DNA from: a virus
Length of the DNA stretch: 41,392 nucleotides
Virus record (IMG/VR): IMGVR_UViG_3300023223_001537
Location: 1 to 41,392 of that record
Strand: one strand, 5' to 3'
The translations under genes were made by a program, and so were the position numbers. Numbering within the stretch: position 1 is the stretch's first letter; each line of letters starts with the position of its first letter. The notes under the pieces are model-generated. The model did no database searches. It worked only from the letters and a program-made list of their open reading frames with translations, and was not told the DNA's origin. Shown in pieces: positions 1-18,262 of this stretch.

Positions 1-144
1 AAAGAAAAGCCCTATCTCCTGATGCCGCGACATTTGTTACGCTTACTACAGACACTGATACCGCTAATATTACCCTCCTTTCTAATTTACCAGCTACTGT
101 GCAGGAAATTACTATATTTCTTCAACTATGGAGTTCAGACGATA
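1..144. repeat. Terminal overlap, copy 1 (identical to 41249..41392); marks circular closure of a 41,248-bp genome
   Basis: Direct comparison of both ends: the string aaagaaaagccctatctcct...gagttcagacgata occurs at both ends with no mismatch. Confidence 0.95.
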
Positions 145-521
145 GCAACCAACAACCTAAAATTGTGCTAGGAGACAGCGGAGGTTTTGAAACCAGTGGT
201 TATTTAAGCATTGGACTAACAAGCACCCAAGCCGGAACATTATTGGACAGTGAAGTTAGCGGATTTATTGTTGGCGACCAAGCGCAATTTAGTTCTGGTA
301 GCAATAATAGCGTAACATTTGTTTTAAAAAATCAAGGCTCAAATGTGTGGTCTTACCGCGCTTTCGGTGGCCGAAGGAAAAGCAGTGACGCGGACAGTGT
401 TTTTTATAATGGACACGGTAGCAAAACTTTATCGCCAGGACCCTTAACTCAGGTTCGTTTATCAACTAAAGGCGGAACGGCGTTGAATGATGGTGGAACG
501 GCTTTTATCAGTTTTAGATAA
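1..521 (+). CDS. Tail fibre protein, C-terminal part. This is the continuation of the ORF starting at 40402; the joined ORF is 455 codons.
   Basis: The reading frame is open from base 3 with no stop before 519..521. It is in phase with 40402 once the 144-bp overlap is removed (1368 nt = 456 codons including the stop). The GTG start at 99 in the ORF track is an artefact of the window edge. Confidence 0.8.
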   Translation, partial: RKALSPDAATFVTLTTDTDTANITLLSNLPATVQEITIFLQLWSSDDSNQQPKIVLGDSGGFETSGYLSIGLTSTQAGTLLDSEVSGFIVGDQAQFSSGSNNSVTFVLKNQGSNVWSYRAFGGRRKSSDADSVFYNGHGSKTLSPGPLTQVRLSTKGGTALNDGGTAFISFR

Positions 522-725
522 AATTATGTTATAGTTATATTGAGAATAGAGCAGGACCGGAAATGAGAACCCGGCCCGACGCGAGGACACGCGCCATCGG
601 ATAACCGACTGCCCCATAGATAAAATATAAGTTGGTTTCCAGGGTGCCTTTCACTAAAGGCAATCGGATGCTAAATCAAATCCTACCTTTAAAATTAAAT
701 CCACAAAATACATGGAGGCATCCTC

Positions 726-1022
726 ATGCCTGACACGATTCATGGAATGGTGCGCTGGAAAGCTCTTGCCGGCATTTTAGTTACCATTTTTTCGATTCTT
801 TTTACCTATTCTTATCAATCTAGTTCTCATTTTACAGTTCGGATGGAAAAGCTGGAAGATAAAATGGTCACTCGTAAGGAATGGGATCAAGCGGAAAAAT
901 ATCGTTCTCAATTCCTGGCAGAATATAGAGAAGACCAGAAAACACAGAATGAATTGTTAAAAGAATTGTTGGAGAAAATTACTCATATTGAGACTAGAAA
1001 TATTTACAAATCTGGAAAGTGA
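726..1022 (+). CDS. Single-pass membrane protein with a coiled-coil C-terminus; candidate holin or i-spanin
   Basis: GGAGG lies 8 nt upstream. There is one N-terminal hydrophobic helix (ALAGILVTIFSILFTY) followed by a charged helical tail. It is the first gene of the lysis-like cassette. Confidence 0.5.
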   Translation: MPDTIHGMVRWKALAGILVTIFSILFTYSYQSSSHFTVRMEKLEDKMVTRKEWDQAEKYRSQFLAEYREDQKTQNELLKELLEKITHIETRNIYKSGK

Positions 1023-1029
1023 TAACACA

Positions 1030-1446
1030 ATGAAAAACATAATATTAAAAAGAATTCATACCGGAGAATTTGGAACATTTGGCGTATTGATGGAAAAAGA
1101 CCGACCTCCTTTTGCCTTAACGCTTGAACCCCCGTGGAAAGACAACGAACCAAATATTTCGTGTATTCCCGCAATGACCTACCACGTTTTCCCCGTAGTC
1201 TCCCCGCGTTTTGGCAAAACTTGGGAGGTGGTCGATGTTCCTGGTCGATCCCATATATTATTTCATAAAGGTAATATAGCGAAACCGAGCGTGTCAGACA
1301 CTCTTGGTTGTATTTTAGTCGGTGAAAGATTTGAATTTCTTGGCGGTCATCCTGCTATCTTAGCCAGCAAACCAGGATTTAATGAATTCATGGATATACT
1401 TGATGAGGAAAATGTTTTCAAATTATCAATTATGGAACATTATTAA
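1030..1446 (+). CDS. DUF5675-like protein with a YkuD-like H-x14-T-L-G-C motif; candidate cell-wall enzyme or endolysin
   Basis: Motifs SPRFGKTWEVVDVPGRSHILFHKGN...SDTLGCILVG. The ATG at 1030 is preferred over the upstream alternative start at 988. The gene sits between a membrane protein and a lipoprotein. Confidence 0.55.
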   Translation: MKNIILKRIHTGEFGTFGVLMEKDRPPFALTLEPPWKDNEPNISCIPAMTYHVFPVVSPRFGKTWEVVDVPGRSHILFHKGNIAKPSVSDTLGCILVGERFEFLGGHPAILASKPGFNEFMDILDEENVFKLSIMEHY

Positions 1447-1534
1447 TAAAAGATCCCAAACCTGCGACCAGTCGCTTTCGGCAGTGCCCTACACGAAAGA
1501 AACTGGCCAGAGGCATGGGATCAAAGGAGATATC

Positions 1535-1669
1535 ATGCGTATCATAATCTCATTAATTATAATGACAATCCTGAATATTAATTCAGGCTGTGCGACAACC
1601 ATGAAAAAGGCTGCAGATTGTATGGCTGACACTCAGAAATGTTGGGCAGATTATAATAAAAAACCATAG
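1535..1669 (+). CDS. Small lipoprotein (44 aa); candidate o-spanin
   Basis: AGGAGA RBS upstream of the ATG at 1535. Signal peptide plus lipobox (LNINSGC). The mature part is short and contains Cys. The 1382 start in the ORF track is unlikely. Confidence 0.5.
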   Translation: MRIIISLIIMTILNINSGCATTMKKAADCMADTQKCWADYNKKP

Positions 1670-1704
1670 ATTGAATCAGTAGCCTCGTTAAAAAAGGACT
1701 GGCA

Positions 1705-2082
1705 CTATTTCTTAATGTATGGATTTTCGATTTTTCCATTCAAAATTTCATATTCATTAAACATTTCAATAAATTTAGGATCAATCGTTTCTGGGTCTAA
1801 ATTATAAGGAATATCTTTTATTTTTTGTCTCAAATTATTCTTATATTGAATTCTAATAGTATTAATTTTTGCTTTAATTTCATTCTCGTCCATTTTTTTC
1901 TCCACTTTAAAGGATTCTTTTCCATTATGACAATGCCTTACATTCCAGCCTACTCCCCATGAAGTACAATTGGTTCTGCAATAATGACAACCGTCTGATG
2001 CTGTATTTCCAGGATGAGCAGATGAAAGAATGGGTACCGAAAGAAAGATGAAAGATGCGCAAATCAAAATTAATTTTTTCAT
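1705..2082 (-). CDS. Secreted YHYH-domain protein
   Basis: GGAGG RBS before the internal Met (MKKLILICASFIFLSVPILSSA signal peptide). The motif HPGNTASDGCHYCRTNCTSWGVGWNVRHCH matches the YHYH-domain pattern. Confidence 0.6.
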   Translation of the reverse strand: MKKLILICASFIFLSVPILSSAHPGNTASDGCHYCRTNCTSWGVGWNVRHCHNGKESFKVEKKMDENEIKAKINTIRIQYKNNLRQKIKDIPYNLDPETIDPKFIEMFNEYEILNGKIENPYIKK

Positions 2083-2142
2083 AAAACCTCCTCGGTTAAA
2101 TAGGGTTTGCTGCCAATTCCTTAATTGCATCAAGAAATTTAT

Positions 2143-2616
2143 TTAAAGCAACTTGCGAAGTCTATCTTTTTCCAGCGATAACTCACAAATAATAAATGAA
2201 TGAAATGCGTGAAATATAAGTTGAATTCCATCTTTAGAATGTCCCCATTCCTTTACTGCTACTTTATGTTCTAAATATTTTTTAAAAAGTTGTTTATTAA
2301 GTGAGTTAAGGACAGGTTTGAATAAATCTTCATCAAGTTTGTTTGGATGTCCCGCCGTATAATGGGCGAAGCTGTTGCGCAATATTATAAACCTTCTCAA
2401 GGTCTTTAAAAGAGCGGCGTCTAAACCGAATGCTGCTAATAAATTGAGTCTTGGTGAAATAAATATTACCTGAATGCTAATATGTTCGTTTTTTTCGTGA
2501 ATAGATTCTAAAATATCATTAACAATTCTTTCTATATTTATAGAACATCTCAGTAATAGATCAATAGAATCGTCACCACTTACCATTAAAACAAAATTTT
2601 CTTTATTAAAAGTCAC
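2143..2616 (-). CDS. HEPN-motif protein (predicted all-alpha, R-N-S-F-A-H = Rx4H); candidate RNase, Abi or toxin
   Basis: The LRNSFAH motif is encoded at 2362..2379 on the minus strand, and I checked it codon by codon. The ORF is 157 aa with a GTG start and AAGGAA upstream. An alternative ATG lies at 2586. Confidence 0.5.
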   Translation of the reverse strand: MTFNKENFVLMVSGDDSIDLLLRCSINIERIVNDILESIHEKNEHISIQVIFISPRLNLLAAFGLDAALLKTLRRFIILRNSFAHYTAGHPNKLDEDLFKPVLNSLNKQLFKKYLEHKVAVKEWGHSKDGIQLIFHAFHSFIICELSLEKDRLRKLL

Positions 2617-2666
2617 CTTTTATATTCCTTTATTTATTTAAAGTAATATGATTTATGTCGTGAACC

Positions 2667-2879
2667 TTATCTTGTATGACACTCTGGACAGCAGTGAAAG
2701 CATCCATCAACATTGTTGAATCCTTCTTCTTTTGCTTTTCTAACTGCACCACGACAAGTAGCAAAAGTGCCTAAATCATGTTGGTTTTTTTTGTCTGGTA
2801 AATTATTACATGTATCTAGGTTGTGCACTTCATGTTCCCCTGAAGATTGAGGATTTTTATTAACGCAAAATTTTGGCAT
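2667..2879 (-). CDS. Small Cys/His-rich protein (70 aa), C-terminal CxxCCxxCH cluster, probable metal binding
   Basis: GGAGA RBS. Sequence ...GEHEVHNLDTC...DGCFHCCPECHTR. It lies immediately upstream of the HEPN-motif gene on the same strand, with a 50-nt gap. Confidence 0.5.
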   Translation of the reverse strand: MPKFCVNKNPQSSGEHEVHNLDTCNNLPDKKNQHDLGTFATCRGAVRKAKEEGFNNVDGCFHCCPECHTR

Positions 2880-2954
2880 TTTTAAGTCTCCACGGTTATT
2901 GGTTTTCGCTGCCTATTATTTACAGCAACATTATTGTCGCCGTATAAAGTTTAT

Positions 2955-3176
2955 TTATTTCTCTTCCATTTTCCCAGAACTGGACCTCTTTTGTAGAACA
3001 ATCTGATGAGTGGAACATACACCCGTTGATACTGTACCTGTAAAACCGTTCATAACCGCTCCGCATTTTTCAATGATTAATCCTCCGGCACCATCGCTTG
3101 AAATATTGGTTACATAAGGTCCCGCTGAAGAACAACCGCTCAAAACGATGAGAAATGTAAAAATAAATTTTTTCAT
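2955..3176 (-). CDS. Small lipoprotein (73 aa)
   Basis: GAGG RBS. Signal peptide with lipobox (IVLSGC). Confidence 0.55.
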   Translation of the reverse strand: MKKFIFTFLIVLSGCSSAGPYVTNISSDGAGGLIIEKCGAVMNGFTGTVSTGVCSTHQIVLQKRSSSGKMEEK

Positions 3177-3399
3177 GGAATAACCTCATAATGTAAATAA
3201 TTAAGCAACCCCAAGTCCTTTGACAGCGAGGAAAAGGAAAGGTTTTAGACACGAAGAAGGGAATTGATTTATATATCGTGAATGGTTGCTGAATGAAGCC
3301 CTGAGGTAGCCTTATCAGCCCAATTGCGACAGAGCCAGCCCTCAGTTTTAGACGCGGATAATCCGTCCTGGAAACCGCGAATGGCTCCTCAATTAGACT

Positions 3400-3726
3400 T
3401 TAATTTTTTGGATTCTTAACAGAACTTCCTTCTTTTGTAAGTAAATAAACAGCCTTGGCAAAATCCTCTCTACTACGCTCATTGGCTTCGTATTCAGCGT
3501 GTAATTTTTCCTTTCTTTTAGCTTCAGCAGCCTTTTCTGCCTCTGTAGGGATACAAGCTTTTGGCGGTCTGTCATCGATACATAAAACTAAACTAAAAAA
3601 TCCGCCAAGAATACACATCAAACCCCAGAAAATCATAGCATTATAAAAACAGAGCAGCATACCGATGAAAAAACAAAACAAAACAAACAAGATTCCCATG
3701 ATATTTCTCCTGGCTTTACGATTCAT
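3400..3726 (-). CDS. Two-helix membrane protein with a charged C-terminal tail
   Basis: Hydrophobic segments GILFVLFCFFIGMLLCF and IFWGLMCILGGFFSLVLCI. The ATG at 3726 is preferred over the TTG at 3735. It is the first gene downstream of the repressor. Confidence 0.5.
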   Translation of the reverse strand: MNRKARRNIMGILFVLFCFFIGMLLCFYNAMIFWGLMCILGGFFSLVLCIDDRPPKACIPTEAEKAAEAKRKEKLHAEYEANERSREDFAKAVYLLTKEGSSVKNPKN

Positions 3727-3822
3727 CGTTTTCAAGAACGCTCAGTTTAGCTCGACTTGGCTTTGAATCAATGGTTTTTTCGTTAATTAATAATTCTAAT
3801 TGTCGTATGGGCTTGCCTTGCG

Positions 3823-4236
3823 TTAACTCATATTTCCTTGGTGAACCTTTTTTGGGTGGTTGGGAATTGTAAGGTCATCCAGTTTTTGTTGAAGACCTTT
3901 AATTTCTAATTCTTGGCTTTTGATTAATTTTCCCTGGGTCTTAACATGTTGCTCATGAGACTGAACTAGCAATAGAAAACCCTCAATTCTACGTTGAATC
4001 TTCTCTTCAATATAAGCGGGTTCATTTCTGCCAGAAACCAGATAATCTATGGTGGTATTGCATAGTTTACTGACCGAAAAAAGCAATTCCAAAGATGGTT
4101 TAACCTTGCCTAATTCCACATGACTGACATAGGTTTGACCAAATCCAAGTAATTCGGCAAACTTCTCTTGAGTTTTGTCTCCCCGTAATTCTTTGAATCT
4201 TTTACCGATATCTTTTTTATCGAAATTTTTATTCAT
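3823..4236 (-). CDS. XRE/cI-type HTH repressor
   Basis: HTH pattern IGKRFKELRGDKTQEKFAELLGFGQTYVSHVELGKVKPSLELLFSV. It is divergent from the early operon. Confidence 0.75.
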   Translation of the reverse strand: MNKNFDKKDIGKRFKELRGDKTQEKFAELLGFGQTYVSHVELGKVKPSLELLFSVSKLCNTTIDYLVSGRNEPAYIEEKIQRRIEGFLLLVQSHEQHVKTQGKLIKSQELEIKGLQQKLDDLTIPNHPKKVHQGNMS

Positions 4237-4252
4237 ATTATTATATTTATGC

Positions 4253-4281
4253 TTGACTCCTAGTTAAAAACATCATACTAT
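4253..4281 (+). promoter_or_regulatory. Rightward early promoter candidate (TTGACT-17 nt-TACTAT)
   Basis: The hexamers and 17-nt spacer were read directly. It lies in the divergent region between the repressor and the early genes. Confidence 0.5.
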
Positions 4282-4340
4282 TGTTCTGAAAAGCTTGTAA
4301 CCTATTATTAAACAAGGTTTAGCGCTTTCATTCATAAAAG

Positions 4341-4509
4341 GCCCGTGAAGTTATGATAAACCCTATAAAAACAAAAAATAAACCAGAGGAGCCCTATCGG
4401 ATCCCTTTGGCCACTACCGTCGATTCCTTCCTTTTGACTTCACGGGCATAAGTAAAGTTCGGCGGTAGTTTAATTTTTAAGCTAAGCGGAGGGGCTGCAA
4501 CCCCTCCGC
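4341..4509 (+). ncRNA. Structured leader of the early operon: two 11-bp long-range helices in pseudoknot topology plus a 9-bp GC hairpin
   Basis: 4341..4351 pairs with 4437..4447 (11/11). 4413..4423 pairs with 4459..4469 (11 bp with one G-U). Hairpin GCGGAGGGG-ctgcaa-CCCCTCCGC at 4486..4509. No convincing ORF is present. Confidence 0.4.
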
Positions 4510-4572
4510 TCGGTATAGCGTAACCCGCTCAAGGTCACAATAACGTCAAAATTCAACTCGGGAGGTTTTTTA

Positions 4573-4779
4573 ATGTCTCAAGAATCAAATTCTAACGGCA
4601 AAGCCAGAATGAATATTTCTATTACTCATGAAAATAAAGGGAAGATAGAAGATCTCGCTGTAAAAAATATTAGAAGTGTGAGCCAACAGGCAGAGCACCA
4701 GATTGCACTTTCCTTTAAATACGCAGATCAGATTACGCAAATGGAACTCGAAGCTGCTTTAGCTACAAAGAATTCATAG
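4573..4779 (+). CDS. Ribbon-helix-helix (Arc/CopG-like) protein; candidate Cro-type early regulator
   Basis: GGGAGG RBS. An N-terminal beta strand (RMNISIT) is followed by two helices. It is the first gene of the early operon. Confidence 0.5.
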   Translation: MSQESNSNGKARMNISITHENKGKIEDLAVKNIRSVSQQAEHQIALSFKYADQITQMELEAALATKNS

Positions 4780-4862
4780 CTCAAAAACAAATATGACACA
4801 AGTTTGAACACTATGCAACACAAAAGTTCAAATTAAATACAAAAAACTCAGCGAGGTGCGAA

Positions 4863-5621
4863 ATGGATGAAAACAGCCCAGACGAACCACAGATTGTTGT
4901 AGCGCAAATTCCAAATCTTAATCAAAGGATGCTGGCCATTACCAATGACGCTAAAAGGCAAAAACCTGATAAAAAAGTTGCTGCTGCCAGGATCAATTAC
5001 GATTATATCTCCCATAACGCCGTAACCGAGTTAATCCAACCTCTTTTGGTTAAACATGGTGTTGACGCCTGCCCGGCCCTTCAAAACGTAGTGAGGGACC
5101 AATATGACGTCGCAGCCTACAAAGCTGATGATCCTCCTACCATCAAAAACCGGCTCACAGTTTATTTTGATATTAAATTTGTCAATGTTGATGATCCAAA
5201 GGATTTCGAGATGATCCCCTGGATAGCTGAAGCTGTCGGGAATGATGACAAACAACTCGGAATAGCGGTTTCTGCGGGAATCCGGCAATGCTATCAGAAA
5301 CGATTTAAATTGAGGAGCGGTGATCCTGATATTGAGGAAGGGAATGTTGGTAATGATAACAAAGAAAAAGGGGGAACCGGAACCAAAGAGAAATATGAAC
5401 CACGCAAAGAAGAAACATCAGGGAAGCCGAGACTGGTTTCAGTAAAACAAGTAACATTTTTCAATCAGTTAGTAGAAAAACATGGGTGGTCAGAAATAGA
5501 TGTAGATATGGAAATTCATAGCAAATTTGGGGTTGATAATGCCGCTCAATTTGCAATGAGCGATTTCCAGGAAGTAGTCAAGATTCTTGAAGCTGGTCCC
5601 AAGGCTGATATCCCATTTTAA
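4863..5621 (+). CDS. erf: Erf-family single-strand annealing recombinase
   Basis: Pattern INYDYISHNAVTELIQPLLVKHGV... followed by a charged low-complexity C-terminus, as in Erf proteins. Confidence 0.55.
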   Translation: MDENSPDEPQIVVAQIPNLNQRMLAITNDAKRQKPDKKVAAARINYDYISHNAVTELIQPLLVKHGVDACPALQNVVRDQYDVAAYKADDPPTIKNRLTVYFDIKFVNVDDPKDFEMIPWIAEAVGNDDKQLGIAVSAGIRQCYQKRFKLRSGDPDIEEGNVGNDNKEKGGTGTKEKYEPRKEETSGKPRLVSVKQVTFFNQLVEKHGWSEIDVDMEIHSKFGVDNAAQFAMSDFQEVVKILEAGPKADIPF

Positions 5622-5638
5622 TTAAGGAGGAAACAGAT

Positions 5639-5992
5639 ATGACAGAACAAACTGAGAATCTAACAAAATTTAGGGAAATGTGGAAAAAGGAATATCCAGA
5701 CAAACCTTATCCATTCACTAAACAGGCAAAGATGAAAAAGAAAAGGGATCTTTATGTACGGCAATTGAGAGCAGATGCCGAAGGTCTATTCGAACAGGCC
5801 AGCGAACTTGAAAAGAATTGGTTGGATGATTTTGATGATTATAAATTAATTGAGAATCAGCTTCCTTACATTGAGCAAATAGGGGCTGAAGTAAACGAAT
5901 TATGGGAGGATATTTCTGTACTTTCCAAAGAATTGAAGGAATATATTGACGCCGATTTAACTGAGGCAGAACTTCAGGAATTTGAGGAATAA
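5639..5992 (+). CDS. Hypothetical acidic protein
   Basis: AAGGAGG RBS. Coding-like composition. No motif recognised. Confidence 0.5.
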   Translation: MTEQTENLTKFREMWKKEYPDKPYPFTKQAKMKKKRDLYVRQLRADAEGLFEQASELEKNWLDDFDDYKLIENQLPYIEQIGAEVNELWEDISVLSKELKEYIDADLTEAELQEFEE

Positions 5993-5993
5993 A

Positions 5994-6269
5994 ATGGGTA
6001 AGCGAACTCAATTCATGCAGTGCGCCAATTGCGGTTCAATGAATGAAATCATAACAGATACCAGAGATTCGGGTAATGGTCTATCCCGTCGGCGCAGAAG
6101 GCAATGTTTGGATTGTAAACATCGATATACGACACATGAATTCAAGGACGATGATTTAAAAAAACTTTTATGGAACTGGTTGGATGCTGTGAAATTAAAC
6201 ATTAATCGCGATCTAAATACTTTACCAGATATTGGTTTATTAATAAGAGAACACAGACACAATAAATGA
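5994..6269 (+). CDS. NrdR-type zinc-ribbon protein lacking the ATP-cone
   Basis: MQCANCGS...TDTRDSGNGLSRRRRRQCLDCKHRYTTHEF parallels the NrdR N-terminus (CxxC...DSR...RRRRxCxxC..R.TT.E). GAGGA RBS before the ATG at 5994. It abuts the integrase gene. Confidence 0.6.
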   Translation: MGKRTQFMQCANCGSMNEIITDTRDSGNGLSRRRRRQCLDCKHRYTTHEFKDDDLKKLLWNWLDAVKLNINRDLNTLPDIGLLIREHRHNK

Positions 6270-6349
6270 TTTCTGTTCCCAAATATCAAAATATGATAGA
6301 TTCCTTTCGCTGGGCGGTGAGGGATAGTTCACCCGTGAAGGAGGGAGCT

Positions 6350-7390
6350 ATGCCTGACCATATTATCAAGCGAAAGGATAAAAAGGGAAAGGAGTTTAAA
6401 AACTTTTATGCAAGCAGAAAATATAAAGGCGTTTTCCTAAGGGACTGTCTGGAAACGACAGACATTCTTATCGCTCAGAAGCGATTAATCGAATTGGAAT
6501 TGAAAGTTGATCGCAATGAATATCACGCATGGAAAAAAACATTTTCCAACTGTGTTGATGAATGGAAATCTTCCTTGAATATGACAAGGGGCAACCATCA
6601 GCGATATGAATCAATTGCTCGAATCCATTTAATCCCGCGCTTTGCTAATAGCCGGGTTGTTGATCTGGTGACGCATGATCAGCAAACCGGCAAAAGCGTT
6701 TTGAGTGAATACCTGGAAGAGATTTCAGGAATGCCCCAGGAAAGCGTTAAAAAATTCAGGGTTGCCCTGTCGCAGATTTTGAAGCATTACGATAAGTCAT
6801 TCAAACTGCCAAAGGCAAATTATGCCAACCCTGGGTTTTATCAGACGAGGTTTTTGACGATCGAGGAACTCAATATAGTAGTAGATAATTTGAGTCCTGG
6901 CCGACACAAACTCGTAGCGTCACTTATGGCATACACAGGGCTGGATCTCACTGAGGCACTTTTCATTAAATGGGGTTCTATTAATCTCAAGAGGAATTTC
7001 ATTACCATGAAGAGGGATAAACGTCTTTATTCTTCAGAAGCGTTAACCAGGGAAATACCTCTGACCGATGCTTGTCAGAAACTTTTACGATCCAGATTCA
7101 AGATCAGAAAATTGCATGATGACCGGGTTTTTGATATCAGCTATGCCGCTTTTCAAAAGGCATGGAATAGAGCCCGGGAAAGATGGGAAATTGAATGGAA
7201 CGTGAGGATCAAGGATCTCCGTCACTTCTTCGGCAGTCATATGTTGAATAGTGGTGTGGATCCAATGCTGGTTGCCAACCTTATGGGCCATTCTAGCGTT
7301 AATATGCTGCTTAAAAGGTACGGGCATTATCGCCTTGATACCAAACAAAAAGCGATTGACGTTTTTAACGAGTCGATGGCGGCGCGGTAG
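6350..7390 (+). CDS. int: Tyrosine integrase
   Basis: C-terminal catalytic pattern ...IKDLRHFFGSHMLNSGVDPMLVANLMGHSSVNMLLKRYGHY. AGGAGGGA RBS before the ATG at 6350. An attP-like region follows. Confidence 0.85.
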   Translation: MPDHIIKRKDKKGKEFKNFYASRKYKGVFLRDCLETTDILIAQKRLIELELKVDRNEYHAWKKTFSNCVDEWKSSLNMTRGNHQRYESIARIHLIPRFANSRVVDLVTHDQQTGKSVLSEYLEEISGMPQESVKKFRVALSQILKHYDKSFKLPKANYANPGFYQTRFLTIEELNIVVDNLSPGRHKLVASLMAYTGLDLTEALFIKWGSINLKRNFITMKRDKRLYSSEALTREIPLTDACQKLLRSRFKIRKLHDDRVFDISYAAFQKAWNRARERWEIEWNVRIKDLRHFFGSHMLNSGVDPMLVANLMGHSSVNMLLKRYGHYRLDTKQKAIDVFNESMAAR

Positions 7391-7444
7391 AGCCGGGTAG
7401 AGATGGAGTTATAACTCTGAAAGACTACCATATTTCAGAACGGT

Positions 7445-7656
7445 GCGGGGTGGGGAATCCCGCCCATCGACTTAACAAGGTACACAGTGGAAATGTTGGA
7501 ATCTGAAAGCATTATGAATAATTGCCGATGGCGGCGTGGTATCGCCGGGATAGGTGGCGTTTTTAACGATAGTAGGAGCGGGGTGGGGAATCCTGCCCGT
7601 CGGCATAAAAGGTTCACAAATGGTACACATAGGAAATGGTAAAATCTGAAAGTATT
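7445..7656. repeat. Two imperfect copies (7445..7512 and 7578..7656) of a 70-80-bp unit; candidate attP arm region
   Basis: Both copies begin gcggggtggggaatcc(c/t)gccc and end aatctgaaag(c/t)att. They lie between int and the tRNA-like core. Confidence 0.6.
7609..7631. repeat. 23-bp perfect direct repeat, left copy (aaggttcacaaatggtacacata)
   Basis: Identical to 7792..7814. The two copies flank the tRNA-like core and are candidate arm-type integrase sites. Confidence 0.7.
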
Positions 7657-7661
7657 GAAAA

Positions 7662-7711
7662 GGTGTGTCCCCAGGGGGATTTGAACCCCCGTCGCCGGCG
7701 TGAAAGGCCGG
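7662..7711 (-). other. attP core: 3-prime half of a tRNA-Glu(UUC) gene (anticodon arm to acceptor end), not a complete tRNA
   Basis: The reverse complement reads CCGGC-CTTTCAC-GCCGG-CGAC-GGGGG-TTCAAAT-CCCCC-TGGGGAC-A. This gives a UUC anticodon, a 4-nt variable loop and a T arm. The upstream sequence cannot form the D arm or the 5-prime acceptor strand. Confidence 0.75.
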
Positions 7712-7791
7712 TTTACTATTTAATCACTATCCCACACCGCCCAGCAAATCAATCCCTTTCAGACAATCCATCCTTCCTTTGGTACCCAGAG

Positions 7792-7814
7792 AAGGTTCAC
7801 AAATGGTACACATA
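7792..7814. repeat. 23-bp perfect direct repeat, right copy
   Basis: Identical to 7609..7631. Confidence 0.7.
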
Positions 7815-7861
7815 AATCCATTTTTAATAACTTCATATATAATTTCTGTAGGAGTTTAAAA

Positions 7862-8761
7862 ATGCCAAGGAAAAGATATATCAAACCAGCTTTTTTTGAG
7901 GATGAGGATTTAGCAGAATGCTCAATAAATGCCAGATATATGTTCATTGGGTTATTGGGCTATGCTGATCGAAATGGTATTCTTCTGCATAAAGCAAAGT
8001 TTTTAAAGAGCAGAATTTTACCATATGACGAAAAAATTGATGGCGAAAAGCTCATTAATGAACTCATTGACCATCCAAAATCATTCCTCATTGCCTTTGA
8101 AGTGGATGGTGTTAAATACCTGAAAATAAAGAACTTCCTTAAACATCAGAATCCTCATCCACATGAAAAATCAGGGTTTCCTAAAAATGTAATTGCATGT
8201 AATGACAATATAATTACAAGCAGTGACACTGACATTGCTTGTAACGGAAGTTCCGGCAGTAGCAAACCTTATAACTTAGAACTTAGAACTTCTAACTTAG
8301 AAAAGATTAAAACACATAGTCCAGATTCCTTAAAACCGGAATCTGAACGAGTAGTTAAAATTATAAATAAATTCTCGCCAGAAGATATGCGGTTCGTAGA
8401 AAAAATGCGAACGGATATATCCAAATTTGATCCAAAACGTAAATTCAGGGGATCAATAGAATCCTGGGCCAAGGATATATGCAAACTGAGGGAAATTGAT
8501 AAACGATCGCCTGAGGAAATGAAAGCCATGTGGCTACTGGTGCAGTCGGATAATTTCTGGCATAAACAGATATTATCCGCTTCGAAGTTCAGGGAAAAGT
8601 ATAGTGATTTAAAAACCAGGCTAGATACCAATACACGGGGTTCACCTCAGGTTAATAAACTGACCACATTTGAGAAAAAACGCAATGTTATGAAGGACTT
8701 TATGAGTGACGACACATCTTTAGGAGGACAACAAAATGCCCTTATCGAAAGAACAGTTTAA
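7862..8761 (+). CDS. Putative replication initiation or replisome-organiser protein
   Basis: The N-terminal pattern YIKPAFFEDEDLAECSINARYMFIGLLGYADRNGIL is common in phage replication proteins. AGGAG RBS. Confidence 0.5.
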   Translation: MPRKRYIKPAFFEDEDLAECSINARYMFIGLLGYADRNGILLHKAKFLKSRILPYDEKIDGEKLINELIDHPKSFLIAFEVDGVKYLKIKNFLKHQNPHPHEKSGFPKNVIACNDNIITSSDTDIACNGSSGSSKPYNLELRTSNLEKIKTHSPDSLKPESERVVKIINKFSPEDMRFVEKMRTDISKFDPKRKFRGSIESWAKDICKLREIDKRSPEEMKAMWLLVQSDNFWHKQILSASKFREKYSDLKTRLDTNTRGSPQVNKLTTFEKKRNVMKDFMSDDTSLGGQQNALIERTV

Positions 8762-10386: not shown

Positions 10387-11232
10387 ATGATTAAAGAGGT
10401 CATTGGTGACTTTACATTGTATCTAGGCGATTGTCTGGAGGTTATGGAGAAAAAGAAAAATGAAATTGAAAATGAAAATATTAAATTAGTATTACCAGAT
10501 CCTCCTTATGGGAAGACAGCGTGTGAATGGGATTCAATTATACCTATTGACGATATGTGGGAAAAATTAAACAAATTGATAGATGATACCGTTCCCGTAT
10601 GTATTTTTGGCATTGAGCCGTTTAGCTCGAGAATAAGAATCGCAAATATTGAAAAATATAAATATGATGTGATTTGTGTTAAGTCAATTCCAACTGGGCA
10701 TTTGAGCGCGACAAGAAAGCCTCTACGCAACGTGGACATAGTAAGCGTTTTTTATACAAATCAATGTACATACAATCCGCAATATACTTTAGGCGCAAAT
10801 AAAGTTTGGTCACGCAGTAATACCACTCTTTCAGTAAATTATGGCGGTCATAAAAATAGTGGGAAAAAGATTGTTTCGAGGGGAATTGATAATAGTTTAA
10901 ATTATCCGCGTGAATTTTTATTTTATCAAAGTTCTTATGCTGCAAGAGAAGAGAAATATCATGATACACAAAAATCCATTACATTATTAGAATTCTTTAT
11001 AAAAACATATACAAATGAAAAAGAAACGGTTTTTGATTTTACAATGGGGAGCGGTTCAACTGCTATTGCATGTTACAGACTAAACCGTAAATTTATTGGG
11101 ATAGAAATTGATGAAGAGTATTTTCAAAAAACTTGTGAAAGGATTACTGAAGAAAAAAGACAACTTAGGCTATTCGTTGACGAACCAACTTATGAACAAT
11201 CAACGTTAAAAATGTCAAAAAATAGCCTTTGA
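10387..11232 (+). CDS. DNA methyltransferase (DPPY type, probably N6-adenine), no cognate nuclease seen
   Basis: Motif IV VLPDPPYG and AdoMet motif FDFTMGSGSTAIAC. Confidence 0.8.
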   Translation: MIKEVIGDFTLYLGDCLEVMEKKKNEIENENIKLVLPDPPYGKTACEWDSIIPIDDMWEKLNKLIDDTVPVCIFGIEPFSSRIRIANIEKYKYDVICVKSIPTGHLSATRKPLRNVDIVSVFYTNQCTYNPQYTLGANKVWSRSNTTLSVNYGGHKNSGKKIVSRGIDNSLNYPREFLFYQSSYAAREEKYHDTQKSITLLEFFIKTYTNEKETVFDFTMGSGSTAIACYRLNRKFIGIEIDEEYFQKTCERITEEKRQLRLFVDEPTYEQSTLKMSKNSL

Positions 11233-11519: not shown

Positions 11520-12386
11520 GTGTCTATTGAGTTCCAACAAGCCGGCATTCATGATGTTTCGAGGTCCAACCCACGCGATATCCTCTATATCAAGGGCAAT
11601 GAAACCACCCCTGGAAGCATCCGTTTCCATTTCATAACCCGCACCTCTCCTGATCCTCAAGAAACCTTTGCTCATATTGAATTGAGAGATTCAGGCGTTT
11701 GGAATGATACCGGCCTGATATTTTCAGGAGGATCGATTAGTTTAGGCAATGATTTAAAGGCTTCTGCTGTCGGCCTTTTTCTTTCAAGTTTTAATGAATC
11801 CTCTGATCCGATAGTAGGAACAAGATCACTTTACCCCCATATTAATTATGATCCTCTTGACGGTACGCAAGATAACCCAACTCGAATCCCTCCAAAGACA
11901 GGTTTTCCCGTTATGCCTGTTCTCAAACCAGAACTTTTTGATGTTTTCCCTGACCCAGATACGGGGGAAGTGGTAGCAAATACAATAAGTATTGTTTTTC
12001 CTCCTCTGTCTGAAAGAGTAATCTTTCGCTCACAACATCAATCGGGAAATGTATTACCAACCACTGAAGTCCAGGTAACTTATACAGACAATGGGGTGGT
12101 CATAAATCGTTTTAATGTTCCAGCATCCCTCTTTTTCGCAGGTCAAAAATTTGATCTTCTTTTTGAAGATTTTGGATTCGGGGGTTCAAACATAATTCAG
12201 ACATTTACCAGCACGTCTTTATTTTCTTTAAGAACAAATGCAGGCGGAAATTTTATTACTCTTCAAGATGGTTATCTGCAGGACACAGTTGATGTAATTC
12301 TCGAAGAGTTTGTCATTACCAATGACCTTTCCTTGCTGTTTAATAATAACGATCCTTTTTTTATAGTCCATAGTCGGTTCCCATAA
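11520..12386 (+). CDS. Hypothetical virion or tail-associated protein
   Basis: Long ORF with a TAATG overlap onto the fibre gene. GTG start with a weak RBS, so the start is uncertain. Confidence 0.5.
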   Translation: MSIEFQQAGIHDVSRSNPRDILYIKGNETTPGSIRFHFITRTSPDPQETFAHIELRDSGVWNDTGLIFSGGSISLGNDLKASAVGLFLSSFNESSDPIVGTRSLYPHINYDPLDGTQDNPTRIPPKTGFPVMPVLKPELFDVFPDPDTGEVVANTISIVFPPLSERVIFRSQHQSGNVLPTTEVQVTYTDNGVVINRFNVPASLFFAGQKFDLLFEDFGFGGSNIIQTFTSTSLFSLRTNAGGNFITLQDGYLQDTVDVILEEFVITNDLSLLFNNNDPFFIVHSRFP

Positions 12387-15300
12387 TGACAAATCAATTC
12401 CATAGAAATTTAATAGATTTTGACAACCATGCTGTAAACGCTGCTGAATATGCGACGATTGCCGCAAGGGATGCAGATACAACATTCAATGAAGCTGTTG
12501 CGAATATAAACAAAATTGTCAAAGTTCTCGATAACGGATCTGCTGAAGTCGCCTATTTTATTCTTGTTAGTGTTTCTCCCGACGTCTGGTTAGAAATCAC
12601 AAGTACATTAAGTAATTCCTTCCTTGAATTAACCGATACGCCGAATTCCTATTCTGTACCAGCTTCCGCTGGGAAAGTTCTGCAGGTTAATGCCGCCGAA
12701 ACTGGAGTCGAATTTTCCACCACTTTAATTGTTGAACCGGCAAATGACAGGGTCAAGATAGGCGATTCAGCAGCCGCACTGACAGATTTAACATTATTTC
12801 AAGATACCGGAACCCTGAGAGGATTAACGTTTTCAGGAGATGCAATAGTAGGTAGTGGAACCACCGATGGAATAACTCTTTCTATGGGGCAGAATAGTGT
12901 TGATGACAAGATTTTGCTTTTTGGGCAAACAAGCGATATAGCCGTCAGTGGCGAGTCAACGTTGGCCATTAATGTGGGGGTCGACCTGCCGTCTATTTTT
13001 GGCATTAATCCTATATTAACAATTGCTAGAAATATTGGAATAGGTGGCCCTATCTCCAATGTGGGAGTGGGTTTCGCGCCTGCCGCAATGCAAGCGGATG
13101 TTTTAGCAAAGATGCATATTAAAACGGGCGCAGTTGGAACTGTAGGGGCAATTATTGAAGCAGAAAGCGCTCAAACCGCAGATATATTTAGAATTATTAA
13201 AGACGGCGTTACAGATCCTTTAATGCAAATAACAAAGGATGGCGATGCGGTATTTCAAAGTGATAATGATTTTACTAACGCCTTTGAAGTTAAAAGAGCG
13301 GATGGGACTCTGGTTGTTGCGGTAGACACTAGTAATCGTTTTCTCAATATAACAAACACGACACCTTTGGGTAAATTAGGCATTAGAATTGATCAGGCCA
13401 GCCATGCAGGAATATTTATTCGAGGAATAGACGCACAGACCGGAGAATACCTTAGATTTACAAAGGATGACTTTACAACGATTTCAACTATAGATGGCAA
13501 TGGAAATGTTTTTTTTCGAATGATAGCAAATTCAGTAACCGCTTTTGAACTTACAGATGTGGCAAACGCAACCGTGTTTGATATTGATTCCACAAATAAG
13601 AGGGTTGGAATTGCTAACAATGCTCCTTCATTTAATTTGGATGTTACAGGAGATGGTCGCTTTACAACCAATCTGACAGTGGGGGCTGATTTAACCGTCG
13701 ATACAGATACGTTATTTGTGGATGCCTCATTAAATAGAGTAGGAATAAATATTCTCTTACCATTAGAAGCATTGCATGTATTTGGGAATGCCCGGGTAAC
13801 GGGAGCTTTCATTGATTCTTCAGGGGATCCCGGGACCAGCGGTCAAGTTTTAACAAGTACTATAACTGGAACAGATTGGGCAAGTCCAATTGGGGATGTA
13901 ATAGGGCCAGCATCATCAACGGACAATGCTATTTCCAGATTTAATGGAGTAACCGGAAAGATAATTCAAAACACTTCACAGGTAACTATAAATGATGACG
14001 GCCATATTGTAGCCCAAAATACTGTCAATTCCACAGGCGCATTCGTGGTTTTAGATGTAGCAGCCACTTCGGTTTTTTTCATCAACACAATAGCGAATGA
14101 AGTCACATCCAGAGATTTATTTGTTGTCGGAGATTTGAATGTTACCGGGGCTTTTGAAGACAGCAGTAGCAGTGCTGGCATAAGCGGTCAAATTTTATCT
14201 AGTTTAGGTACCGGGACTGATTGGATCAATAATACAATTGGTGATGTGGTGGGTCCGGCATCGGCTACCGTTAATGCTATCGCAAGATATGCGGCAGCGG
14301 ATGGGAAATCAATTAAAAATAGCACCGTCTTGGTAGCAGATAATGGAACCGTAACGATACCTCCGGGTGGGAATTTTGTTGTCGATACAGATACTTTTAT
14401 AGTGGAAGGTACACTTGATAGAGTTTCCATTGGAGCTATAGCAACGCCATTAACTGATTTTACTATTTTTCAAAGAGCTGTAGACCAAAAAGGAATAACA
14501 CTTTCTGGAGAACCAGTAATAGGAACTGCCACAAATTTGGATGGAGCCACCATATTTTTAGGTCATAGTACTGCCTTTAATCGGCAAATATTTATTGGCG
14601 AGACAAGTGACTTGGGGAATTCGTTAAAGAATGGCCTCTCGCTGATTGTAGGTCCTGATGTTCCGTCATTTTCTGGTGTTTCTATGACTGGAGTACTCAG
14701 GAATTTTATCGTGGGCGATCTTGGCGTAAAAGTTGGAGTAGGTTTTATAGCAAGCGCTGCAGTTCAAGCAGATATAATTGGAACCTTACATGTTCAAACT
14801 AACGCCGTCGATGTTGCTTTAATTGTTGAAGGTAGGAACGTCCAAACAGCAGATATATTTCAAATTATTAGAACCGGAACTACACCACCATTGATGAAAG
14901 TTACCGAAGCCGGCAATGTTGAATTTAGGAATGAAACGGATAGTGTAACAGGATTCCAGATTCTTGATGCCGATGGTGGCGTTCCTATGTTTAATGTTGA
15001 CACAATAAATGAAAGAATTGGAATAAATAATGCCGCCCCATCCGTTACCTTTGATGTTCTTGGGGATGCGCAAATCAATGGGCAGACAAGAATAAATAAT
15101 TCTTCTCCTTTGGGGGCTACTTTTTTAACTGATTTTACAGTTTTCCAAACGATGGGAACTGACAAAGGAATAACACTTTCAGGTAATGCGCCCACGACTT
15201 CAAGCATAGTTGAAGGAGCTACTCTATTTTTGGGCAATACTGCCGCAAATGTTCAACAACTATTTATTTGCCAAAAAACTCACCTTGGTAATGCGGCAGA

Positions 15301-16309
15301 ATCTGCATTGAGAATTATTACCGGATTACCAGTTCCAAATATATCAGGGATAAATCCTACGGCCACAGTTGGAAAGCATATAGATTTAGGAACTCCAAGT
15401 TTAAATGTTGGCGTAGGTCATCCAGCAACGGCGGCAACAACTCAAGCCATTTTGGATGGAGTAAAACTTTTTATCAGGTCTGGCGCAACCACAAATGTTG
15501 GTCTGGTTACGCAGGGCGAAGCAAGTCAAACCGCCGATTTATTCCAAGCGAGAAATTCTTCCGCCGTTAGTTTGGTCAAGATAGAAGAAGATGGCGACAT
15601 TATTGTAAGTGCTGTTGGCAGCAGTTCTGGGACGCCAAGAAAAATTCAAATGCTGAATGCGCCAACTGAGTTTAACCAATTTTTATTTGGCGGCGTAACC
15701 GGCATGCAATCTGCCAATGGTCATGGTTTGGATATTTTTGCATTTCATACTATAAGGATTTTTGGCGATACAACTGCTGGTATCCCACCTTTTGAGATAG
15801 TATCCGATGTAGGCGTTCAAATAGTAAATACGATTGTTTCAAACCCCGCTTTTGTCATTGATGGAGCCGCTTCTCAAACTGGCTCATTACTGCAATTAAG
15901 GACTAACGTTCCCGTAGTTTTATCAGAGTTTGACGAAGCTGGAAAATTAGTTGTTGGAGGAACCAAATTAGCAATGGTTGCCGATAGGTCAATGCTGGAT
16001 GTCAGAGGAAGCGTTGCTGTTGAGAGACTAGCATCGGCTGGAGCCGTTAGCACAGTCGATGAAGTGATCATAGCGGTTACCGGAGCGATGCCTGCAGGAG
16101 GAGTGATCGTAACAATATCAACCGCCGATATTGTTTTAGGAAGAATATTTATTATTAAGGATGAGTCGGGAACGGCAACTGTTCCAAATCCCATTACAGT
16201 ACAAGGGCAAGGTGGGGAAACAATTGACACACAAACGAGCGTTCCAATAACCGCAAATTTTGGCAGCCTTCGTCTTTATAGTGACGGCACAAATTTATTC
16301 ACATGGTGA
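12386..16309 (+). CDS. Very large tail fibre protein (1307 aa) with an internally triplicated module
   Basis: N-terminal fibre motif ELTDTPNSYSVPASAGKVLQVNAAETGVEF. Three modules start LTD(L/F)T(L/I/V)FQ at about aa 132, 689 and 914, each containing SQTADxFQ-like strings. Confidence 0.8.
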   Translation: MTNQFHRNLIDFDNHAVNAAEYATIAARDADTTFNEAVANINKIVKVLDNGSAEVAYFILVSVSPDVWLEITSTLSNSFLELTDTPNSYSVPASAGKVLQVNAAETGVEFSTTLIVEPANDRVKIGDSAAALTDLTLFQDTGTLRGLTFSGDAIVGSGTTDGITLSMGQNSVDDKILLFGQTSDIAVSGESTLAINVGVDLPSIFGINPILTIARNIGIGGPISNVGVGFAPAAMQADVLAKMHIKTGAVGTVGAIIEAESAQTADIFRIIKDGVTDPLMQITKDGDAVFQSDNDFTNAFEVKRADGTLVVAVDTSNRFLNITNTTPLGKLGIRIDQASHAGIFIRGIDAQTGEYLRFTKDDFTTISTIDGNGNVFFRMIANSVTAFELTDVANATVFDIDSTNKRVGIANNAPSFNLDVTGDGRFTTNLTVGADLTVDTDTLFVDASLNRVGINILLPLEALHVFGNARVTGAFIDSSGDPGTSGQVLTSTITGTDWASPIGDVIGPASSTDNAISRFNGVTGKIIQNTSQVTINDDGHIVAQNTVNSTGAFVVLDVAATSVFFINTIANEVTSRDLFVVGDLNVTGAFEDSSSSAGISGQILSSLGTGTDWINNTIGDVVGPASATVNAIARYAAADGKSIKNSTVLVADNGTVTIPPGGNFVVDTDTFIVEGTLDRVSIGAIATPLTDFTIFQRAVDQKGITLSGEPVIGTATNLDGATIFLGHSTAFNRQIFIGETSDLGNSLKNGLSLIVGPDVPSFSGVSMTGVLRNFIVGDLGVKVGVGFIASAAVQADIIGTLHVQTNAVDVALIVEGRNVQTADIFQIIRTGTTPPLMKVTEAGNVEFRNETDSVTGFQILDADGGVPMFNVDTINERIGINNAAPSVTFDVLGDAQINGQTRINNSSPLGATFLTDFTVFQTMGTDKGITLSGNAPTTSSIVEGATLFLGNTAANVQQLFICQKTHLGNAAESALRIITGLPVPNISGINPTATVGKHIDLGTPSLNVGVGHPATAATTQAILDGVKLFIRSGATTNVGLVTQGEASQTADLFQARNSSAVSLVKIEEDGDIIVSAVGSSSGTPRKIQMLNAPTEFNQFLFGGVTGMQSANGHGLDIFAFHTIRIFGDTTAGIPPFEIVSDVGVQIVNTIVSNPAFVIDGAASQTGSLLQLRTNVPVVLSEFDEAGKLVVGGTKLAMVADRSMLDVRGSVAVERLASAGAVSTVDEVIIAVTGAMPAGGVIVTISTADIVLGRIFIIKDESGTATVPNPITVQGQGGETIDTQTSVPITANFGSLRLYSDGTNLFTW

Positions 16310-16315
16310 AAAAAT

Positions 16316-18262
16316 ATGACAGGAAGTAATTTTAATACACACGATATGCTCCCTTCAAGACAGGGCGATAATATTCTTGAGGTTCATAGTTTAGGTGATT
16401 TACCGACGGCTATTGGAGGCATCCGAGATTTTGAACTGAATCAGGCATTAGATATAAGAGCCACCCTGTTTGAAACAAATGTGTGGCGTTGGCCTGATGA
16501 GTCTTTTATTTTTATTTGGACAAAATATTCCAACCAAGCAACCATTTTTTATTTAGGGTCAGATACTTTCATTCAATGTGCAGGGCAGGCTGGAACTACC
16601 ATTTTTAGAAATACAAATATTTTCGGCACAAGTGCCGCTTCGACAGCAAAGCTTTTGGACCTTACTGCGAGTTTAAATGTTGGTCCCGCAAGTTTTGGGG
16701 TTCAAGATACGGCATTTGTTGGCTTCCCTGGTGGGGCACGATATAACAATTTCCCGAATGGAATTATCAGGGGAATGGTTTGGTTTAACAATGTGTTTGC
16801 ATCGACAATAAGCGAAAGTATTACCTTTCAGAATTGCGGTGTTTTTGAATTGGGTGGTCAGCTGATGATCGGCATTGGAAACACGAATCAGTCTTTATTA
16901 TCTATTACGGGAGATGCCACAGCCCAAGGAAGGATCCATGATACTGACTGGAATGTACCGGGTACGCAGTCAGGGATATATCTTGGATCAAATATCACGA
17001 CTTTTGCGGCCATGGGAACTTTTGCCGTAAGTCAGCCCGGCACGGGAACATTTTTTAAGACTCAAGAATTCGGCGCATTTCAAAGCGTTGCAGATGGATC
17101 AACCACCGGAACAGTATCATCTGTTTCAGGAAGAGTAACTGCCTTTGGAACCTTTGCGGTTTTCAATGCGACTACAACGCCATTAGAGGGGGATGTTATC
17201 AACCATGTGGGATTCGCTGAAGCCACCTATAACGGTAAATTTAAAGCCCATAGGGTGGATGCGGGTGTCAGTTATCAAATAGCCTTATTTCCATTTCAGC
17301 AGCCTGTTTTACAACAGGGAGCCACGACAGGAGGCACATGGGATCGGGAATACACTGTAATAAATTCAACAGATACCTCTGAACTTAGAATCGGATTCGG
17401 AGTAGAAATACAGAACAGTTCAGACAGCTTTTATGATGGTGTTCATTCGGTGCTTGAGCTTGTCGATAATGTAAGTTTTTCGATTCAAGCAGATTTTCAA
17501 GGTTCCACATCCGTAACCGGAGATTTTACGGTCAAATCTTTAGATGAGACAAATATCCAAGTAGATGTTGACCGGGCTGGAGCGCAAAAATCCAGCGAAA
17601 CGATTGCTTTGGGATCGATTAATGCTCGAACTGGAACTACAGCTATTACGCAAGATGTATATGATGATCTTAATGTTAGCGGCTTCCTTGAAAATATAGT
17701 AGTGGAACGATTTGAATTAACTGATACGACTTTAGGTACATTCACATATAGGGGACAAAACAAATTTCAAGGTTTTGTGAATGGGGCCTTGTCAGCATTA
17801 AAAACTGGAGCCACGCAAAATTATAGATTTGCAATGTCCTTAAATGGTGGAATCCCACTTTTTACCGCTATTGCTTCCACGGCCATTACAAGCGTTATTG
17901 ATTCTCCAACCAGTCCAGGAACAGCTCGGTTTGTTCATGCAGGGACATCTCCTCCTGTAGGTTCGATTGCAACGACAACAGGCTTTACAACCAACACGCT
18001 TTATAATACGAGGGAACTCGTTACCTTTTCGGATGCGACTAATTTTGAACTAAATGGTGTAGCATTTGGAACAACTGAAACAGGCAACTTCACTGCAGCC
18101 ATCGCTAATTATATTCCTATGGAAGTGAAGACAACAAAAGTTGTTGTTCCTCTTCTTTTTATGGCGCAGTTGGAAACTGGCGATACAATACAAATAATGG
18201 TAGCTGGGGATGGTCATGCACAAGATTTAACAATAACCGATTTTACATTTGGAGTATTCTAA
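16316..18262 (+). CDS. Second fibre or receptor-binding-like protein (648 aa)
   Basis: Gly/Thr/Ser-rich beta-type composition. It lies directly after the 1307-aa fibre gene. Confidence 0.55.
   Translation: MTGSNFNTHDMLPSRQGDNILEVHSLGDLPTAIGGIRDFELNQALDIRATLFETNVWRWPDESFIFIWTKYSNQATIFYLGSDTFIQCAGQAGTTIFRNTNIFGTSAASTAKLLDLTASLNVGPASFGVQDTAFVGFPGGARYNNFPNGIIRGMVWFNNVFASTISESITFQNCGVFELGGQLMIGIGNTNQSLLSITGDATAQGRIHDTDWNVPGTQSGIYLGSNITTFAAMGTFAVSQPGTGTFFKTQEFGAFQSVADGSTTGTVSSVSGRVTAFGTFAVFNATTTPLEGDVINHVGFAEATYNGKFKAHRVDAGVSYQIALFPFQQPVLQQGATTGGTWDREYTVINSTDTSELRIGFGVEIQNSSDSFYDGVHSVLELVDNVSFSIQADFQGSTSVTGDFTVKSLDETNIQVDVDRAGAQKSSETIALGSINARTGTTAITQDVYDDLNVSGFLENIVVERFELTDTTLGTFTYRGQNKFQGFVNGALSALKTGATQNYRFAMSLNGGIPLFTAIASTAITSVIDSPTSPGTARFVHAGTSPPVGSIATTTGFTTNTLYNTRELVTFSDATNFELNGVAFGTTETGNFTAAIANYIPMEVKTTKVVVPLLFMAQLETGDTIQIMVAGDGHAQDLTITDFTFGVF

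Follow-up and report, generated by a model that had tools for sequence, protein, structure and literature searches.

The stretch of viral DNA examined here is IMG/VR record IMGVR_UViG_3300023223_001537 (41,392 nucleotides; the whole stretch is referred to as the window, and all coordinates are window positions). On its minus strand, where everything central to this report is located, it encodes a protein of 157 amino acids (aa) that, judged from motif conservation, Pfam matches of its relatives, a profile match to HepS and its predicted fold, is a member of the HEPN superfamily and a distant homologue of HepS. By sequence and by analogy it is a divergent example of the solo prophage HEPN abortive-infection proteins, a kind already known through HepS, and the complete reading, in which a solo HEPN ribonuclease (RNase) would abort infection in the lysogen by a HepS-type mechanism, is given a probability of roughly 60%. 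The gene occupies 2143..2616 (GTG start, supported in that the nearest homologue, P0031, can be aligned with it from residue 1 onwards) and is preceded by a second open reading frame (ORF) encoding a Cys/His-rich protein of 70 aa (2667..2879, minus strand, ATG start), the two being separated by a spacer of exactly 50 nucleotides (2617..2666). The original prediction, made from the sequence alone, had treated the two genes as a candidate abortive-infection or toxin module. Both ORFs, the R-N-S-F-A-H motif of the longer protein, the CxxCCxxCH cluster of the shorter one and the 50-nucleotide gap are exactly as it described, and its HEPN assignment is borne out by the evidence presented below, whereas the pairing of the two genes is not.

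The predicted HEPN Rx4H catalytic motif, R80-N-S-F-A-H85, is encoded at 2362..2379 on the minus strand (CGC AAC AGC TTC GCC CAT). Taken alone, a match to R[polar]xxxH is weak evidence, since it arises in 16% of shuffles of the 157-aa protein and in five of the 66 window ORFs of at least 100 aa, the narrower RNxxxH being present in only one of those 66; it is conservation across a family that lifts the motif above chance. A word-index homologue search returned only the protein itself, and tblastn against GenBank phages gave no match. When 1.84 billion representative proteins were searched exhaustively with HMMER, nine came out at E ≤ 1e-3, namely the protein itself, seven full-length relatives (21-42% identity in the alignment) and one 65-aa fragment. 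A profile constructed from the full-length relatives then recruited 60 proteins, nearly all of 155-220 aa and free of other domains, the typical member being a stand-alone protein of around 165 aa. Residues G64, R80, F83 and H85 are invariant in the 51-sequence family alignment, and D16, E29, N81 and A84 are at least 90% conserved, which gives the family the signature ...GL....L.pL...g.LRNkFAH. HEPN domains are defined by two features, a conserved acidic residue and an Rx4-6H motif in which the arginine is followed by a polar residue, either N, D or H (PMC3710099). Both features are present in the 157-aa protein, the acidic residue of HEPN type being E29, which is located in an earlier helix and is invariant in the alignment of eight sequences, although the exact Ex3[KR] spacing is not retained (E29-R-I-V-N).

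Curated HEPN families are reached through the relatives of the protein. Pfam PF18735 (HEPN_RiboL-PSP) is matched by 19 of the 51 family members at E ≤ 0.01 (best E 1.7e-6), HEPN_Cthe2314 by three members and Abi_2 by one. Common to these families and the 157-aa protein are the Rx4H motif with asparagine after the arginine and an acidic residue in the first long helix (E29). With regard to PF18735, most of the member matches appear weak, and the present family differs in being stand-alone, with no fusion to an L-PSP domain. The only PDB protein matched by the family profile is HepS (9oij_A), with an E-value of 1.5e-5 when the profile comprised eight sequences and 2.7e-9, over HepS residues 37-121, when it comprised 51. 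In this alignment of a homologous core the block GL..L..L...RNk[FY]AH is shared, and the family LRNxFAH is placed on the HepS sequence IRNKYAH that contains the catalytic R100 and H105; indeed, the profile score is lower for the HepS chain carrying the H105A mutation. Additionally, a profile from which the window protein and its five nearest relatives had been omitted scored 53 bits on the window protein and 40 bits on HepS residues 37-132. Since the reduced profile scores both proteins, the link to HepS is not an artefact of inclusion of the query.

The AlphaFold2 (AF2) model of the 157-aa protein, which has an alignment of eight sequences behind it, consists of seven helices and no strands (predicted local distance difference test score, pLDDT, 79; predicted template modelling score, pTM, 0.74), in keeping with the apparently all-helical character noted originally, and the modelled C-terminus forms one long helix (residues 128-156). 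The highest-ranking Foldseek matches of the model are the YggD/MtlR structures 3c8g and 3brj, with probabilities of 0.60-0.96 and template modelling (TM) scores of 0.46-0.58, HepS (9oik) being ranked fifteenth. MtlR, represented by 3c8g and 3brj, is itself a HEPN family (Anantharaman et al. 2013; PMC3710099). The mannitol-operon regulators MtlR/YggD (3c8g, 3brj and 6kcr) are thus the best structural matches within the superfamily, but they have no sequence-level match to the 157-aa protein, and MtlR proteins are regulatory and encoded in mannitol operons. Regulatory MtlR proteins often lack the catalytic motif (PMC3710099).

The window represents a complete temperate phage, with genes for an integrase, an Erf-like annealing protein, a replication initiator, a cI-like repressor, terminase, portal, scaffold and major capsid protein, as well as P22-like connector proteins (Hc3, Ad3), one or more ejection proteins and two DNA methyltransferases. 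Bases 1-144 are identical to bases 41249-41392, and the genome is circularly closed or terminally redundant with about 41,248 unique bp; no tRNA genes were found in the window, and megablast of positions 1-8000 against GenBank phages gave no match. The HEPN gene is the fifth gene of a six-gene block on the minus strand, in which short gaps separate genes for the repressor, a membrane protein, a lipoprotein, the 70-aa protein, the HEPN protein and a secreted YHYH-like protein. In temperate phages, genes that are active in the lysogen, exclusion and defence genes among them, are usually found downstream of the repressor, lambda rexAB being an example. Since the location of the block is downstream of the repressor and its genes run opposite to the lytic ones, its expression in the lysogen is a reasonable expectation. 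The same location bears on a different explanation, namely that the protein serves the phage itself and has no part in defence, acting either as an RNA-processing RNase on phage or host RNA or as a non-catalytic, MtlR-like RNA-binding regulator. Such a role would accord with the MtlR/YggD proteins, regulatory HEPN proteins, being the best structural matches, and with the ordinary chromosomal contexts of many family members, for example beside a WYL/HTH regulator or metabolic genes. Against it, the catalytic arginine, asparagine and histidine are invariant or nearly so in the family whereas regulatory MtlR proteins often lose the signature, the relative identified at the sequence level is HepS rather than MtlR, and the position of the gene points to expression in the lysogen. 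Service to the phage is consequently considered unlikely, and the preferred reading remains that of a solo HEPN RNase acting against superinfection.

HepS ("HEPN Solo", STM14_3211) is a protein of 212 aa encoded among the accessory genes of the Gifsy-1 prophage of Salmonella Typhimurium and was reported, with structures 9oij and 9oik, by Sargen et al. (Nature 2026; PMC13043305). It is constitutively expressed, is non-toxic alone, has no partner gene and forms a tetramer in which the active sites are occluded; the N- and C-terminal segments of HepS make up a beta-sheet to which a peptide from protein J, the siphovirus tail-tip protein, binds, whereupon the active sites open and the protein cleaves transfer RNA (tRNA) anticodon loops, chiefly those of tRNA-Thr, leading to abortive infection in a manner that requires both R100 and H105 (PMC13043305). 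The two proteins are alike in being stand-alone HEPN proteins that have no partner gene and are encoded in the accessory region of a temperate phage, and in consisting of a single domain of less than 250 aa, with no conserved partner among the ten loci examined for the present family. They differ in length, the 157-aa protein being 55 aa shorter, and in the phage that encodes them, which in the present case looks P22-like (Hc3/Ad3 connectors, ejection proteins) and not like a siphovirus. The protein is filed, on its sequence, as HepS-like in core and architecture but not as an orthologue. What follows about its activity as an RNase, its oligomeric state, its trigger and target and its expression in the lysogen is projected onto the 157-aa protein from HepS, and describes the mechanism considered most likely. 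The HEPN protein would be made in the lysogen as a homo-oligomer with two RNxxAH motifs facing each other, and by analogy would stay inactive with no need of an antitoxin until a protein of a superinfecting phage bound it and switched it on. Once activated, it could feasibly cleave tRNA or another RNA, such that translation would stop and the infection would be aborted. A further possible parallel, drawn from its description, is gp57r of mycobacteriophage Butters, whose own HEPN assignment is weak; it is a single prophage protein with an Rx4H motif that is constitutively expressed and non-toxic, and that defends against heterotypic phages whose escape mutations map to tail proteins (10.1101/2023.01.03.522681). 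The HEPN-MNT toxin-antitoxin systems of types II and VII similarly include a small HEPN toxin with an Rx4H motif, but scans of the flanking genes against Pfam and NCBIfam gave no nucleotidyltransferase match here. The original prediction set the locus apart from known HEPN toxins, which it described as usually partnered with MNT nucleotidyltransferases or embedded in larger systems, but a HEPN protein with no partner has already been described in the form of HepS (PMC13043305).

Several observations weigh against the solo abortive-infection reading. The 157-aa protein itself gave nothing significant against Pfam (none at E ≤ 1), NCBIfam or PADLOC, so that its link to curated HEPN families is transitive, through the 19 of 51 members that do match; the profile search envisaged originally thus failed as a direct comparison but reached the HEPN families through the family members and HepS through the family profile. 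Similarly, the single-sequence match between the 157-aa protein and HepS is not significant (E 0.3), the link being made through profiles, and the Foldseek E-values of the model are weak, all being 0.24 or higher. In the structure predictions of the individual proteins, the nearest structures of the 157-aa protein belong to the HEPN superfamily, albeit with weak E-values, and the 70-aa protein has no significant match. Next, the N- and C-terminal segments with which HepS binds its trigger (S13, D15, S202 and T203) have no aligned counterpart, the alignment being confined to HepS residues 37-132. Because the alignment does not reach the trigger interface and the 157-aa protein falls short of HepS by 55 aa, the trigger mechanism of HepS is not simply transferable, and the sensing mechanism of the 157-aa protein probably differs; with the known trigger-binding segments missing from the family alignment, a different sensing surface and a different trigger are to be expected. 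Location in a prophage or temperate-phage accessory region, moreover, holds for the window gene but not clearly for most other family members, which are found in chromosomal contexts that are not clearly prophage. Finally, several family members have a small ORF of 56-73 aa that overlaps their start or ends no more than 16 nucleotides upstream (L098 530-751, L099 455-658, L106 43-243 and 1634-1804 of the P0033 contig), which leaves some room for toxin-antitoxin-like arrangements within the family. If the 157-aa protein does prove to be an active defence RNase, trigger-activated prophage immunity of the solo, HepS type would extend to a very divergent family whose members are about 165 aa long and occur in many environmental bacteria as well as in at least one P22-like temperate phage.

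Family members were placed in context at ten loci, which were located by exact-protein look-up and in several cases lie on very short contigs; the neighbours differ from locus to locus, comprising a WYL regulator, membrane proteins, DUF499 and DUF1156 proteins, or none. In one of these loci (L100, 5549-10522) the family member adjoins a protein of 1110 aa with HEPN_Swt1 and DUF499 domains and a DUF1156 protein, a setting that resembles a defence island and includes a second HEPN domain.

Whether the 157-aa and 70-aa genes belong together was addressed from both sides. The 92 loci with a homologue of the 70-aa gene, each with 4-6 kb of flank, had all of their ORFs searched with a hidden Markov model (HMM) of the HEPN family, and the HEPN-family loci were searched with that of the 70-aa family; both HMMs passed positive controls on the window. 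The HEPN profile had no match among the ORFs of the 92 loci, nor had the 70-aa profile any among those of the ten HEPN-family loci, even with the threshold at E ≤ 10 in both cases. The pair is not co-conserved in either direction, and since the original prediction had named lack of co-conservation as grounds for abandoning the pairing, that part of it falls. Indeed, the 70-aa gene occurs alone in very diverse contexts: its 363 nearest neighbours fall into 280 clusters, 147 immediate neighbours match 110 different Pfam families, and 34 of the 92 loci have no close same-strand neighbour at all. The commonest neighbours are secreted SH3/DUF3761 proteins, AAA_21/AAA_15 ATPases, type I restriction-modification subunits, GIY-YIG and DUF2188 proteins, and HEPN families are absent from the 25 most frequent neighbour families listed.

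These counts bear most directly on the idea of a dedicated two-gene toxin-antitoxin or abortive-infection module, in which the small zinc protein would be the antitoxin, sensor or regulator of the HEPN RNase. The arrangement at the locus is compatible with it, the genes being on the same strand 50 nucleotides apart; the terminator scan found no terminator-like site in the spacer, and on this account co-transcription is likely. The tight or overlapping small genes upstream of several other HEPN loci could mean that variable small partners are tolerated, and the 70-aa gene is often found in defence-rich surroundings (restriction-modification, AAA_21/AAA_15 ATPases, GIY-YIG and TIR domains). However, the small ORFs at the other loci were ruled out as relatives of the 70-aa protein (negative bit scores), many of the genes downstream of 70-aa homologues encode secreted SH3/DUF3761 proteins or restriction-modification subunits and not toxins, and HepS, the nearest characterised relative, is non-toxic alone and needs no partner. 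Together with the failure of the two families to co-occur and the scattered neighbourhoods of the 70-aa gene, these points make a dedicated module very unlikely. A variant, in which members of the HEPN family would be toxin cores whose small upstream partners (56-73 aa, tightly placed in approximately four of nine independent contexts) are unrelated and interchangeable, with a member of PHROG 4298 as the partner here, is equally hard to credit; were it true, proteins of PHROG 4298 would act promiscuously as small modulators, for instance as antitoxin, sensor or anti-defence factor, and would travel through the defence islands and prophages of many phyla. On sequence grounds the adjacency is best read as two independent accessory genes side by side, the 70-aa gene being a separate accessory gene that would neighbour the HEPN gene by chance in this phage. 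The abortive-infection idea itself survives as a plausible role for the HEPN gene, given its place downstream of a prophage repressor, but not as a property of the gene pair.

The 70-aa protein contains seven cysteines and five histidines and belongs to PHROG 4298, a family with no assigned function (E 7.6e-22, residues 1-69 aligned to profile positions 1-69 of 70). Sequence and profile searches of Pfam, NCBIfam and the PDB revealed no relative, PADLOC gave nothing significant, and no member of the family matches Pfam. Its homologues are well conserved (51-65% identity), and V6, N7, Q11, G14, E17, V18, H19, P28, L36, A45, A49, D58, G59, C60, C63 and C67 are invariant in 29 of them; H16, C24 and C42 are kept in at least 90%, position 64 varies between A, C, S and T, and position 68 is usually histidine. 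Conservation of histidines and cysteines, as originally claimed, is thereby confirmed, and it extends to the CxxCCxxCH cluster (C60-F-H-C63-C64-P-E-C67-H68, codons at 2676..2702, minus strand) except for C64. The conserved potential metal ligands number eight, namely H16, H19, C24, C42, C60, C63, C67 and, usually, H68, which would be enough for two tetrahedral zinc sites, and the protein is on this basis probably zinc-binding. Its AF2 model is very confident (pLDDT 95) and comprises four short strands and one helix, with no significant structural match in the PDB or BFVD; an MbtH-like fold was considered and rejected, the best matches (TM approximately 0.4, probability below 0.3) not being meaningful.

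The 70-aa family is widespread, with 261 matching stretches in a one-genome-per-species collection, from Bacteroidota, Proteobacteria, Planctomycetota, Firmicutes, Actinobacteria, Cyanobacteria and Patescibacteria, and a further eight viral contigs. The gene is located between the repressor and antirepressor in Streptococcus Javan prophages, adjoins the integrase in Erysipelothrix phage SE-1 and is part of an accessory region of a Vibrio inovirus, and in each of these GenBank phages it occurs singly. Approximately one-sixth of its immediate neighbours are of restriction-modification or defence type, a figure that is a plain count and not an enrichment test. In Bacteroides loci the gene is often followed by secreted SH3/DUF3761 proteins with a C-terminal Cys/His motif like that of the secreted protein encoded at 1705-2133 in the window, and two loci contain two copies of the 70-aa gene, adjacent in one (L054 3597-4204) and approximately 740 nucleotides apart in the other (L070 3758-5171). 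As a best guess, the gene is an accessory one and its product a small binding protein stabilised by zinc. With its compact and confidently predicted fold, and its spread over prophages, an inovirus and defence-rich islands, the family represents a reasonable target in the search for a new small phage-host interaction factor.

The remaining genes of the minus-strand block begin with that of the cI-like helix-turn-helix (HTH) repressor (3823..4236; Pfam HTH_3 E 1e-10, with matches also to PHROG transcriptional regulator and repressor families), before which the promoter scan placed a merely suggestive promoter-like site (4267..4240, minus strand). There follow a predicted membrane protein of 111 aa with a hydrophobic N-terminal half (3400..3735), for which Pfam and PHROG scans gave no significant family, and a predicted lipoprotein of 73 aa (2955..3176) whose N-terminus, MKKFIFTFLIVLSGC, constitutes a lipobox (Pfam LPAM_1 E 0.024) and whose weak Cor-like and spanin-like PHROG matches are restricted to the signal region. 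Both are encoded between the repressor and the 70-aa gene and are candidates for a role in superinfection exclusion. Immediately beyond the HEPN gene, the block closes with the gene for a secreted Cys/His-motif protein (1705..2133, minus strand, the true start probably being the MKKLIL codon at 2082), in which a signal-peptide-like sequence, MKKLILICASFIFLSVPILSSA, and the motif HPGNTASDGCHYCRTNC...RHCH are present; the protein bears a likeness to the YHYH domain (NCBIfam YHYH_alt E 0.11, under its cut-off), and a terminator-like hairpin was found after the gene (1587..1570, minus strand). Because the promoter and terminator scan performed no better than on shuffled sequence (9 promoter-like sites against 11.8 expected), the operon structure is a putative one.

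Membrane proteins and lipoproteins at such positions are typical exclusion factors, as exemplified by the Cor, Sie and Rex proteins. It could therefore be proposed that the HEPN protein acts within a multi-gene superinfection-exclusion operon together with the membrane protein, the lipoprotein and the secreted YHYH-like protein, the 70-aa gene being one more component. The run of six same-strand genes with short gaps, from the repressor (4236) to the terminator-like hairpin, and the presence of a membrane protein and a lipoprotein in the position typical of exclusion factors are consistent with this, but in the loci examined these block neighbours never recur beside members of the HEPN family, no PADLOC defence-system model matches them, and proximity within a block of accessory genes is to be expected by chance. 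A joint exclusion function is accordingly thought highly doubtful in comparison with a HEPN protein acting alone.

Elsewhere in the window, an ORF of 68 aa (4573-4779, plus strand) diverges from the cI-like repressor gene across a gap of approximately 340 nucleotides and is likely to encode the Cro-like partner of the immunity switch. Three consecutive ORFs in the early or middle region (11520-12386, followed on the plus strand by 12386-16309 and 16316-18262) encode proteins of 288, 1307 and 648 aa that have no Pfam match and practically no PHROG annotation, a large uncharacterised block for a 41-kb phage. The two DNA methyltransferases are encoded at 10387-11232 and 23354-24574, both on the plus strand, the second being fused to a ParB-like N-terminal domain, and are probably anti-restriction functions.

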